Shown here: positions 1,721 through 4,716 of the stretch, piece after piece | Position numbering within the stretch: position 1 is the stretch's first letter | How the letters are laid out: every line of letters starts with the position of its first letter | Source: Adineta steineri | Lineage: Eukaryota | Assembly (NCBI GenBank): GCA_905250115.1 | Contig: CAJNOI010000163.1 | Location: 59,707-123,706, forward strand | Direction: 5' to 3' | Length of the DNA: 64,000 bases | Translations under genes and position numbers: made by a program | The notes under the pieces: model-generated | The model's database searches: none | What the model was told of the DNA's origin: nothing | Seen by the model: the letters and a program-made list of their open reading frames with translations, nothing else

Positions 1721-3082
1721 ATGACGTCTGTATACATTGACAACACGACAGCTGGAGATAGATATAACACATTAGATATCGTTCAAGAACCACAACAAAT
1801 CTGCTTACCAATTTATAAAGATACAATAAATTCTGTTATTTCATTAGAAGATGCTGTTAAACCTCTTGTTGAATGTATACCAAAAATTCTTAGAAAAGTT
1901 CAACAAGCAAAACAAAACTGTCAAAATCCATCAGATGGTCTTTCATCTGATGAATCAGCTGCAATATATCTTTTTTCAATGAGATGGAAACCAGATGATG
2001 AATGTTTATATTTTATTCTTAATACAATTCTTCGTAGTCATGATGTAGAAAAATTAAAACCATGGAATCTTTATTTAAAACTTTTATTTTCAGCTCTTCA
2101 TCGACTTCCTTCAATTGAGATTACGTTTTATCAAGATATAAAACAGGATTTAATTAAAAATAAGAATTTAAAAGAAAATTTTATTGTTTTTCGAGACTTC
2201 ACATTTTGTTCATTATCCATTCCTTTATCACAAAAATCGACAAGAAATAGAACAATTTTAGAATTCAAATGTCATAATGCAAAATTTATTGAAAGACATA
2301 TTTTTAATTCTGATAAAAATGAAATTCTCCTTATGCCAACACAATTTCAATTTACTAAATATGTGGATAGAAGAAATGATCTTGATATTATTCAATTCGA
2401 AGAATATAATAAATCATCACCTCTCATTACATTCCCTATTATTTTCAAACAAATTCATGAGTCAATTACTTCTATGAAAAAATTTACATCAACAGTAACA
2501 CCAATGAATACATTATCAGATACACTTTATCGTAATTCAAAACTTGAAAGACAAATTGCTTCACATCTATTACGTTCACAAATGAATTTAACATATCAAA
2601 ATTTAACTGTTAATGATGTACCTATTATAATTAAACAAGCAATTATCGACAAACAATGTACAAAACTTTTATTAGATAATAATTCTCTTAATGTTGAATT
2701 TATATCAAATCTAGTTTTAGCATTACCAAACAATACAACATTACAAGAACTACATTTTTTTCGAGCCAACATTGATGATAAATGTGTGCAAATTCTGGCA
2801 CAAGCACTTGCATTTAATAATTCTTCCGTTACTTTACTTGGCTTAAATTACAATTCTATTACAGATATAGGTGTACAATATTTAGCTGAAATGTTTAATA
2901 CAAATACAATATTAACTTGTTTACAAGTGCGTAGTAATCCAATTCGTAAGAAAGGAATCAAACTTTTGCTCAATGCACGTCATGATCCAAGAAATAATCT
3001 TCAACAGTTAGATATTGATATAAAAAAGAGTTCAATAAATTTCGAAAGAATATTCAAAAGTATTTGTCATTTAGAAACATGA
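1721..3082 (+). CDS. Intronless 453-aa protein with an N-terminal R-S-E class ADP-ribosyltransferase (ART/ARTC-like) domain and C-terminal RNI-type leucine-rich repeats.
   Basis: ART hallmarks in order: region 1 SSDESAAIYLFS…LYFILNTILR (the Ai-YT…lN-aLR pattern), R motif NFIVFRDF, S motif CSLS/KST, and ARTT loop DKNEILLMP (compare EEEVLIPP and EYEVLL of known ARTs). C-terminus carries RNI-like LRRs (LQELHFFRANIDDKCVQILAQALAFNNSSVTLLGLNYNSITDIGVQYLAEMF…). One uninterrupted ORF in an intron-rich genome. Confidence 0.6.
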   Translation: MTSVYIDNTTAGDRYNTLDIVQEPQQICLPIYKDTINSVISLEDAVKPLVECIPKILRKVQQAKQNCQNPSDGLSSDESAAIYLFSMRWKPDDECLYFILNTILRSHDVEKLKPWNLYLKLLFSALHRLPSIEITFYQDIKQDLIKNKNLKENFIVFRDFTFCSLSIPLSQKSTRNRTILEFKCHNAKFIERHIFNSDKNEILLMPTQFQFTKYVDRRNDLDIIQFEEYNKSSPLITFPIIFKQIHESITSMKKFTSTVTPMNTLSDTLYRNSKLERQIASHLLRSQMNLTYQNLTVNDVPIIIKQAIIDKQCTKLLLDNNSLNVEFISNLVLALPNNTTLQELHFFRANIDDKCVQILAQALAFNNSSVTLLGLNYNSITDIGVQYLAEMFNTNTILTCLQVRSNPIRKKGIKLLLNARHDPRNNLQQLDIDIKKSSINFERIFKSICHLET

Positions 3083-3363
3083 TTTATCTACAATTGTTAT
3101 TTATTTAAACTAAATTAGAATAAAAAGAGGAAATAATATCTATCGATGATTTGTTTGGTATTTTTTTTTCAATTCGAATGTTTGCAGTTTGCATTTTATT
3201 TATAAAATATCTATTACAAAAAATTTGGTATAAAAATTGAATCAGTTATTTATACAGTGTTGACAATTTATCGTAATTGATCATTTCGAAGCAGAGCTTT
3301 GATGTTACTGATATGAAAAAATGTATGTGCGATGACTGTCTTGACTGCTGAAGTTGATTTGTT

Positions 3364-4716
3364 TTAATCATCGATCGGTAGAGCACCTACACATAATAAA
3401 TGAAACTTTCTATGAGCCTTAGGTCTTTGTTCAGACTTCCCTCGTTTCGATTTAGGCTTGCTATGATTGTCAGGTTTCGCTGGTGGTTTTGATTTATTAT
3501 TATTAGCTGAACCACTCTCATTCGGCTGCACCAAATTTATACGACCTTGTTGTTGGCTTCGATCAACTGATGAAATTCGGCTTCTGGCTATTCGTTCATG
3601 TCCAGCTATTTTATTTTCTGAGTAACTTAAATACTCTGTCCATTCTGCGATACATGTAATTAAGTCACGAGCATACAATATACTTCTCCATTTTGGTGAA
3701 ATATTTTGATAGCCATAGAATGCACCTGCCAATTGACCATAAATAGCAGCTGTCGTATCTGTATCGTCACCTAGATTAACAGCAGCAAGTGCACCTGCAT
3801 CAAATGATTCTGTACTCCAAAATGCCCATAGTGCTGCTTCGAGTGTCCAAACAATATGTCCTTTACCTCGAATTCCATCATCATAACCTCTTCTTTTTTT
3901 GAAAGATCCTCTTGCAATGTTAACTATAGTCTCATGAAGTGGGTATGTTCCAAACCAAACTTGATGATCATCATAAAAATATTCGTCAAGTAGTTTTTCT
4001 TTAGACTCGCCGCGAACAGCAGCAACTATTAGTGCTCCATAATATCGACATGCATCGATAGCTACGTCATCACCATGTGTAAGACGACCACTTCGACCAG
4101 ATAACTCGACAGCAAGAGGAGGTACTTGATAGAAAAAGAGAGGAACAGGTGCCAGTCGCATCAAAGCTCCATTTCCAGCAACACCTTGTCGACTACAGTA
4201 TACATCGAATTTCTCTTTCTTAAGCAACTCAGGTGACAATTGATCAACTTCCAAATCCGTATGTATCTTATATTTTCTTTTTAATTCGTTCTGTCGACGG
4301 TAGAATTCTTCTATTGATGCACGCGTGGCATTACCAATATCAAAACATTGTCCAGTAGAAGATAAATAACCATGTTTATGCCACCATTTGTAACGAACCA
4401 TCTGATCATAGGGATCAAAATCATTTCGACTGATAAGTGATGAAGCAAGACAAAGAGCCATAGAAGTATCATCTGTCCACTGACCTGCATCTAAACCCCA
4501 CGTACCGCCAGATTTCATATCATGAACTGGATGTTCAAGAAGATATTGTCGAGGGCGAAATTCAACACTAGCTCCGAGAGCATCTCCAACTGCTAATCCA
4601 ACTAATGAGCCTTTGATTCGATCAAGAACCTCAGGATTATTAGGCTTAGACGAAGGTCGCACAATTTTGATATCACTAGGAAGTATTTTTTCATGAGGTA
4701 AAGGAAATTGTAACAT
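3364..4716 (-). CDS. Intronless ADP-ribosylglycohydrolase (ARH / DraG family, PF03747-like), 450 aa with a lysine/arginine-rich C-terminal tail.
   Basis: Canonical ARH motifs: GSLVGLAVGDALGASVEF, GQWTDDTSMALCL, GVAGNGALMRLAPV, GDDTDTTAAIYGQLAGAFYG. C-terminal KSKPPAKPDNHSKPKSKRGKSEQRPKAHRK tail. The ORF is visibly GC-richer than its flanks. Convergent with the ART-LRR gene (3' ends 281 bp apart). Confidence 0.8.
   Translation of the reverse strand: MLQFPLPHEKILPSDIKIVRPSSKPNNPEVLDRIKGSLVGLAVGDALGASVEFRPRQYLLEHPVHDMKSGGTWGLDAGQWTDDTSMALCLASSLISRNDFDPYDQMVRYKWWHKHGYLSSTGQCFDIGNATRASIEEFYRRQNELKRKYKIHTDLEVDQLSPELLKKEKFDVYCSRQGVAGNGALMRLAPVPLFFYQVPPLAVELSGRSGRLTHGDDVAIDACRYYGALIVAAVRGESKEKLLDEYFYDDHQVWFGTYPLHETIVNIARGSFKKRRGYDDGIRGKGHIVWTLEAALWAFWSTESFDAGALAAVNLGDDTDTTAAIYGQLAGAFYGYQNISPKWRSILYARDLITCIAEWTEYLSYSENKIAGHERIARSRISSVDRSQQQGRINLVQPNESGSANNNKSKPPAKPDNHSKPKSKRGKSEQRPKAHRKFHLLCVGALPIDD

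Follow-up and report, generated by a model that had tools for sequence, protein, structure and literature searches.

Bacteria pair ADP-ribosyltransferase (ART) toxins of the R-S-E clade with ADP-ribosylglycohydrolase (ARH) immunity proteins, and PMC3482391 predicts one such immunity family, Imm-ARG, for polymorphic toxin systems. Bacterial ART–ARH complexes have been solved for Tre1–Tri1 (6dre/6drh) and for a Listeria pair (8za7). Here we examine a locus of the bdelloid rotifer Adineta steineri in which a gene with a predicted R-S-E fold, joined to leucine-rich repeats (LRRs), adjoins an ARH gene. The two lie near the start of a 64-kb stretch of contig CAJNOI010000163.1 (assembly GCA_905250115.1, positions 59,707 to 123,706 of the forward strand), hereafter the window, and both open reading frames (ORFs) match A. 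steineri proteins (P0001 and P0029). An original prediction, made from the sequence alone, had described them as a writer/eraser pair resembling a bacterial toxin–immunity module and possibly co-transferred from bacteria. Its coordinates for the two convergent ORFs, 1721-3082 (+) and 3364-4716 (-), were exact.

Like Tre1–Tri1 and the Imm-ARG systems, the window locus places an R-S-E-fold gene beside an ARH gene, with 281 bp between them. Unlike those systems, it has no active toxin, no delivery domain and no recurrent pairing, and no bacterial ancestor of this kind was found; for want of the first three, we do not class it as a toxin–immunity pair. The explanation that best accounts for the data, to which we assign a probability of about 0.7, is that a pseudo-ART-LRR lies beside an intact ARH, that each comes from a very large bdelloid family and probably acts on its own, and that their adjacency reflects synteny within Adineta. 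The features of the locus, in window coordinates, are as follows.

1721..3082, + strand: single-exon ART-LRR gene, 453 aa, cytosolic type (ORF; 92% identical to P0001; no signal peptide evident)
1721..2440, + strand: ART-fold domain, aa 1-240, R-S-E clade, catalytically degenerate (Foldseek, family profile)
2132..2134, + strand: Gln138 in place of the catalytic Arg (FYQD; YRG in the family, VYRG in ART2.2)
2204..2206, + strand: Phe162 in place of the first STS Ser (FTFCS; FSSCT in the family, FTSTS in Vis, FTSSS in ART2.2)
2315..2323, + strand: K199-N200-E201 in place of E/Q-x-E, in the ADP-ribosylating turn-turn (ARTT) loop
2576..3079, + strand: ribonuclease-inhibitor/NLR-type LRRs, aa 286-453 (Pfam LRR_6, PDB matches)
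3083..3363, no strand: 281-bp spacer separating the two convergent 3' ends (ORF positions)
3364..4716, - strand: single-exon ARH gene, 450 aa, DraG/Tri1 type (PF03747; 100% identical to P0029)
3607..4716, - strand: ARH catalytic core, aa 1-370 (alignment with Tri1 and homologues)
4573-4587, 4462-4476, 4156-4176 and 3751-3768, - strand: ARH motifs GDALG, TDDTS, GNGALMR and DDTDTT, respectively
4195-4287, - strand: rotifer-specific 31-aa ARH insert, aa 144-174 (homologue alignment)
3364..3606, - strand: basic, low-complexity ARH C-terminal tail, aa 371-450 (dN/dS ~1)
5318..6076, - strand: single-exon pirin gene (Pfam Pirin 8.6e-28; synteny), given as context and not as part of any module

The plus-strand protein matches a single Pfam entry at full length, LRR_6 (2.9e-7), and has no match in NCBIfam; the Pfam ART family is unmatched by the full protein at E ≤ 1 and by the ART domain alone at E ≤ 0.01. 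These searches gave LRR_6 alone, and the ART assignment needed a homologue alignment, a comparison of the family profile with the PDB and a structure model. PF01129 is matched by 22 of 29 homologues, the window protein not among them, which is 35–43% identical to bdelloid proteins that do match it. A first family profile (A1) was swamped by LRR matches, so we built an alignment of the ART region only (A2), whose profile retrieved Vis (4e-9), rat ART2.2 (1e-5), HopU1 (1.6e-4) and Tre1 (1.4e-3) from the PDB. The AlphaFold model of the N terminus has a pLDDT of 75.8, mostly above 85 in the core, and Foldseek matched it with a probability of 1.00 to HopU1, XopAI, Vis, Tre1, C3 and ART2.2, with XopAI in the top three. 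On this modeling, the N-terminal 240 aa are a true R-S-E-clade ART fold. Of the two routes by which the original prediction had proposed to verify the domain, structure prediction against ART folds bore it out, and a hidden Markov model (HMM) search did so for most of the homologues and not for the window protein itself.

The fold is identical to that of the ecto-ARTs (PF01129; rat ART2.2, 1gxy), Vis (4xzj), HopU1 (3u0j) and C3, and the order of elements is the one common to ecto-ARTs and bacterial R-S-E toxins, namely N-terminal helices (SDESAAIY...LN..LR), strand β1, the STS strand and the ARTT loop. The window protein is unlike both groups in its Q/F/K-x-E residues, in its fusion to ribonuclease-inhibitor-type LRRs and in its lack of an evident signal peptide or any glycosylphosphatidylinositol anchor signal. 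The LRRs, which had been correctly recognized at the outset, occupy the C-terminal ≈170 aa and align in a PDB search to those of NOD2 (1.4e-14), NLRP proteins and ribonuclease inhibitor (7e-13). Unlike the NLR receptors, however, the protein has only about 5-6 repeats, and its Pfam matches include no NACHT, NB-ARC or other nucleotide-binding switch domain. Pfam and NCBIfam likewise gave no toxin delivery or trafficking domain, and no PAAR, Rhs or signal peptide was found.

Read from a PDB-anchored alignment with ART2.2 and the Vis toxin, the catalytic positions of the window protein depart from the family pattern at three places. The β1 Arg (Y-R-G in the family) is Gln138. In β2, where the family has F-S-S-C-T, residues F162-C163-S164 align to S-C-T of the paralogues, S-T-S of Vis and S-S-S of ART2.2, and the first Ser is Phe162. 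In the ARTT loop (E-N-E-I-L-L-P in the family, QEEVLIP in ART2.2), which reads K199-N-E201-ILLMP, the catalytic Glu201 is kept and the upstream specificity Glu/Gln of E/Q-x-E is replaced by Lys199. The original prediction had credited the protein with all the ordered hallmarks of an R-S-E ART, among them an ARTT loop NEILLMP; the fold and Glu201 hold up, and the residues at positions 138, 162 and 199 do not. FRDF, which it had also counted as a hallmark, was considered as the Arg motif and rejected, as it aligns to the non-catalytic WWGF and its Arg is specific to A. steineri, with Trp in the other orthologues.

Across the family, R-S-[S/T]-E-x-E is kept in 129 of 139 members of an HMM alignment. 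The window ART-LRR and its seven closest relatives, an Adineta-type ART-LRR clade, are all degenerate at the catalytic positions, with residue sets that include QFSKE, RFSKE, QFSRE, QSSRE, QFSQE and RLANE, and Glu201 and the EILL-P core of the ARTT loop are invariant throughout. Such inconsistent substitutions look like relaxed catalytic constraint rather than a new fixed active site. Because two of the three triad positions and the specificity Glu have been replaced, the ART-LRR is probably not a transferase. Vertebrate ART3 and ART4 also lack the R-S-E motif, and the window protein resembles them, as well as the Xanthomonas effector XopAI (6kly/6k94), in keeping an ART fold from which the R-S-E residues are gone. 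It is unlike all three in belonging to another lineage, in its LRR fusion and in being cytosolic and rotifer-specific, and its inactivity is judged here from sequence.

The dN/dS ratio is 0.25–0.52 for the ART-LRR gene (0.18–0.44 for the ART domain and 0.33–0.53 for the LRRs), and 0.16–0.25 for the neighboring pirin gene. Since the triad is degenerate yet the ART domain is still constrained, a pseudo-enzyme kept for binding is most likely. This Adineta lineage has lost the NAD-holding Arg (Q138), the first STS Ser (F162) and the upstream Glu (K199). Its protein is under moderate purifying selection and probably serves for binding or as a scaffold, with the LRRs and the dead ART domain as likely binders of a protein or ligand. 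An alternative is that the domain is still an enzyme, for example an NAD+ glycohydrolase or a transferase for non-arginine or non-protein targets, acting through Glu201 and substitute residues. The invariance of Glu201 and the EILL-P core, the confident prediction of the fold across the core and a dN/dS below 0.5 would all suit such an enzyme. There are also ART clades that rely on another triad (H-Y-E), and the residues responsible for catalysis can shift position. We nevertheless regard altered chemistry as improbable, although less so than the other alternatives discussed below. The replacements are inconsistent within the clade (Q or R; F, L or S; K, R, Q or N), the FRDF Arg is not shared by other orthologues, and a Phe at the first STS position would, judging from known R-S-E structures, fill the NAD ribose pocket.

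The minus-strand gene encodes a complete ARH, as originally described. The protein matches ADP_ribosyl_GH (PF03747) at E = 5.8e-74 (249.8 bits, cut-off 26.2) over profile positions 1-285 of 287. Its metal-site motifs GDALG...VEF, TDDTS, GNGALMR and DDTDTT (GDALG at aa 44-48, and the others at aa 81-85, 181-187 and 317-322) are intact, align with those of Tri1 and are invariant across 18 homologues. The best solved relatives, with which it shares every metal-site motif, are Tri1 of Serratia proteamaculans (6dre_A, 7e-58), Thermus 2cwc (4e-56) and Listeria Lmo0067 (8za7_A, 3.5e-34), and its similarity to human ARH3 is weak (~1e-12). Because its scores fall short of the NCBIfam equivalog thresholds for both Tri1 (NF041672, 247.9 versus 490) and DraG (TIGR02662, 133.5 versus 337), we assign it to a related subfamily rather than equating it with either protein. 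It is an intact ADP-ribosyl hydrolase of the bacterial DraG/Tri1 type, and one that probably depends on Mg/Mn.

Unlike Tri1 and the DraG-type hydrolases, the window ARH has a 31-aa insert and a basic tail, and it has no active toxin partner. The insert, ELKRKYKIHTDLEVDQLSPELLKKEKFDVYC (aa 144-174), occurs in rotifer-type ARHs and is absent from all aligned non-rotifer homologues, most of which are prokaryotic-type. Purifying selection acts on the core (dN/dS 0.19–0.24), whereas the tail evolves near-neutrally and is shorter or missing in Adineta vaga and Adineta ricciae, whose orthologues are 380 and 395 aa long.

To place the pair in its genomic setting, we compared the locus with other Adineta sequences. 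L001/L002, which represents another haplotype of A. steineri or a homologue, carries both genes as single exons (92% and 87% aa identity), and their orthologues are single-exon in every Adineta species checked; the ART-LRR is 50–57% identical to its A. vaga and A. ricciae orthologues, and the A. vaga pair is I4U23_023562/023561. A block comprising SPRY/META, ART-LRR, ARH, pirin and Argonaute genes is common to A. steineri (two haplotypes), A. vaga and A. ricciae. As the flanking genes of the block are equally conserved, the conservation of adjacency is not specific to the pair. The spacer measures 281 bp in the window as well as in L001. A. ricciae has a shorter one of 79 bp, whereas in A. vaga the distance is 4.4 kb because a gene coding for an ART with tetratricopeptide repeats (TPRs) has been inserted between the ART-LRR and ARH genes; this ART-TPR gene is absent in A. 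steineri and A. ricciae. In the A. vaga sequence CP075494.1 (L003:11441-15376, -), it is an uncalled ORF of 1312 aa with an ART domain (PF01129, aa 240-437) and ≈15 TPR_12 repeats.

The adjacency was found in this Adineta block only. Of the nearest Rotaria ART-LRRs, P0340 keeps its catalytic set intact (RSTEE) and P0008 nearly so (RSTNE), and no ARH was found in the available flanks of P0008 (1.7–2.3 kb) or P0340 (10 kb upstream and 2.3 kb downstream). P0007, which comes from a metagenome and belongs to the degenerate clade, has no ARH in the 1.8 kb before it or the 8 kb downstream. Pairing with an ART is likewise not seen for P0042, P0045 and P0048, the nearest ARH paralogues, and the stand-alone ARTs P0011 and P0013 have no linked ARH. 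The convergent adjacency thus looks like local synteny inherited within the genus Adineta, and not like a recurrent writer/eraser or toxin/immunity cassette.

These comparisons bear directly on the functional module first proposed for the locus, in which the LRRs would sense a signal, the ART would modify a target and the adjacent ARH would reverse or restrain it, as a writer with its eraser or an effector with its antidote. The convergent arrangement has been kept in A. steineri, A. vaga and A. ricciae, among solved proteins the ARH is closest to the immunity hydrolase Tri1, the ART is similar in model and profile to Tre1 and to the Listeria ART of 8za7, and the unit is apparently duplicated at one A. 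steineri locus (L098, described below). Such a module is nonetheless unlikely in our view. Its writer is missing three residues that 129 of 139 paralogues keep (the catalytic Arg, the Ser that opens STS and the upstream Glu), its neighbors on both sides are equally conserved, a further gene has come between its two halves in A. vaga, and neither the catalytically intact Rotaria ART-LRRs nor P0007 adjoins an ARH in the sequence available.

The apparent duplication lies at L098:10001-16368 of another A. steineri assembly (GCA_905250065.1), which reads pirin, ARH, ART-LRR, ARH (5'-truncated), ART-LRR, SPRY. Its two copies are ≈93% identical, copy 1 being close to the L001 haplotype (97%) and copy 2 to the window haplotype (95%), and the first ARH carries a 195-bp internal repeat. 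Either the pair has truly been duplicated in tandem or the haplotypes have been misassembled; because the copies match different haplotypes and one ARH is 5'-truncated, the pattern fits a haplotype mis-join or an unequal crossover.

A foreign origin had been suggested for both genes on the strength of their uninterrupted ORFs and the GC content of the ARH. The genes are indeed single-exon, but so are 8 of the 10 complete genes called at the allelic locus L001, which makes intronlessness uninformative here. The ARH is also richer in GC (0.39 versus 0.27), but its GC content at third codon positions (GC3) is merely 0.20, versus 0.07–0.12 in its neighbors and 0.12 in the ART-LRR gene, so that the excess is mostly due to amino-acid composition. 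What does point outward is the distribution of relatives. At least 589 prokaryotic loci from many phyla encode proteins 44–50% identical to the ARH, and among eukaryotes relatives turn up sporadically (in a tardigrade, an Oscarella transcript and Pelomyxa). From sequence comparison it is thus plausible, as proposed, that the ARH family has a foreign source of bacterial type; a GC3 of 0.20 implies that any transfer of the ARH was old and has been ameliorated.

In a neighbor-joining (NJ) tree, the rotifer-type ARHs form one clade (100/100 bootstrap), marked by the 31-aa insert and a long branch. The tree revealed no specific prokaryotic sister that might represent a donor lineage, and it did not support orthology of Rotaria ARHs to the window ARH (8/100). 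The ARH family probably entered, or arose in, the bdelloid ancestor long ago and then expanded. Tri1-like ARHs with ≈45–48% identity occur in the genome of the tardigrade Paramacrobiotus metropolitanus (P0277) and in the transcriptome of the sponge Oscarella pearsei (P0203), and the tardigrade relative carries the NCBI name 'Tri1-like'. These point to patchy and possibly independent acquisitions by other animals, or to contamination in the sponge case.

Joint transfer of both genes from a single bacterial ART–ARH cassette of the Imm-ARG or Tre1–Tri1 type, linked ever since, is another matter. The precedent exists, in that bacterial R-S-E ART toxins are coupled with ARH immunity proteins (PMC3482391), and the ARH is of bacterial type. 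Around the 80 closest prokaryotic ARH loci, however, no related ART was detected within 5 kb (nothing better than E = 4 with a rotifer ART HMM, whose sensitivity for very distant ARTs is limited), and ten sampled neighbors have unrelated functions according to Pfam. Each family is moreover spread over hundreds of unlinked bdelloid loci, the linkage is absent outside Adineta, and both genes have a host-like GC3. Co-transfer is not supported by these data, and we consider it already largely refuted and extremely improbable.

Bdelloids carry both families in greatly expanded form. The best 120 matches to the ARH are all bdelloid (52–100% identity), and the ART family comprises at least 1019 clusters at E ≤ 1e-5; two ART genes turned up incidentally in ≈200 kb of flanking sequence fetched for other reasons. 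Given this expansion, one adjacent ART–ARH pair is expected by chance, and the flanking sample suggests a few chance neighbor pairs per genome. Searched across its 64 kb, the window itself contained no further ART or ARH copies. Most bdelloid ART paralogues have the full R-S-ExE set and bear the UniRef name NAD(P)(+)--arginine ADP-ribosyltransferase, and the family includes stand-alone proteins as well as fusions with LRR, TPR or ankyrin repeats. The likeliest role of the window ARH is to strip off the mono-ADP-ribose that the many catalytically intact ART paralogues encoded at other loci attach.

Several points weigh against reading the two genes as independent neighbors. Both proteins are related to members of the solved complexes Tre1–Tri1 and 8za7, which makes an ancestral physical interaction possible. 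The pair is still adjacent in three Adineta species, and L098 may hold a second copy of it. With Glu201 retained and the ART domain constrained, residual or altered activity is possible. Several of the Rotaria and metagenomic contigs are short, and the absence of ARH genes around them covers just 1.7–10 kb; the estimate of chance adjacency comes from a small flanking sample and not from a whole-genome count. A further reading is that the disarmed ART has been kept beside a Tri1-like ARH because the two still bind each other in the manner of Tre1 and Tri1, with the LRRs sensing a ligand from a pathogen or from stress and the dead ART sequestering or releasing the active ARH. If true, an exapted toxin–immunity pair would have become a sensor-regulator inside a very large, undescribed bdelloid ADP-ribosylation network for immunity or stress, whose parts would include the more than 1000 ART clusters with their repeat fusions and the ARHs joined to caspase, AIG1 GTPase and SAM domains. 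We hold this to be very unlikely, and retain the explanation of two independently acting neighbors.

On that explanation, little changes for the pair itself, in that an 'uncharacterized' LRR protein beside an annotated A. steineri ARH can now be labeled a degenerate ART-LRR. It is best filed as a degenerate, LRR-fused member of the bdelloid PF01129 expansion, located beside a DraG/Tri1-like ARH paralogue. The more promising lead lies in the wider ART and ARH expansions, with their repeat, caspase, AIG1 and SAM fusions, for which a literature search (bdelloid, rotifer or Adineta with ADP-ribosylation) found no description. Should the two families together make up a signaling network for immunity or stress, the pseudo-ART-LRR clade would belong to its non-catalytic regulators and offer a tractable experimental entry point. 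In an A. vaga transcriptome study, 'ADP-ribosylation' is reported to be enriched among genes over-expressed both on entering desiccation and after rehydration (PMC10809525).

Other members of the two families show a range of architectures and settings. Rotifer ARH paralogues are fused to caspase (Rotaria socialis, 922 aa), AIG1-type GTPase (1426 aa) or SAM domains (P0150, P0157 and P0125/P0132/P0135/P0136/P0140, from Rotaria and Adineta), architectures typical of death or immune signaling proteins. Among the long ARH relatives there was no ART–ARH fusion, the fusions seen being to caspase, AIG1, NADAR/PTP and TPR domains. On A. vaga CP075492.1 (L013:16667-18477), an ankyrin-ART gene lies beside a gene with a TIR_2 domain and ≈5.4 kb from an ARH paralogue, forming an NAD-related cluster. 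Two stand-alone, catalytically intact A. steineri ARTs (L014:4784-5554 and L016:2583-3455) lie less than 5 kb from the ends of their contigs, where few other genes are called, and their surroundings are possibly subtelomeric or repeat-rich.

Elsewhere in the window, the Argonaute/Piwi gene (≈7134 onward) is flanked by the pirin gene, whose GC3 is 0.07, and by genes for a GDSL lipase (10723-11625, -) and a monooxygenase resembling flavin-containing monooxygenases (12813-14036, +); most genes around it have no introns. Farther along, at 50779-52329 (-), a single-exon gene encodes a 516-aa protein of glycoside hydrolase family 10 (GH10, xylanase type) that carries a ricin-B lectin domain at its C terminus. 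The gene is likely a horizontal acquisition, since GH10 is unusual as an animal family.

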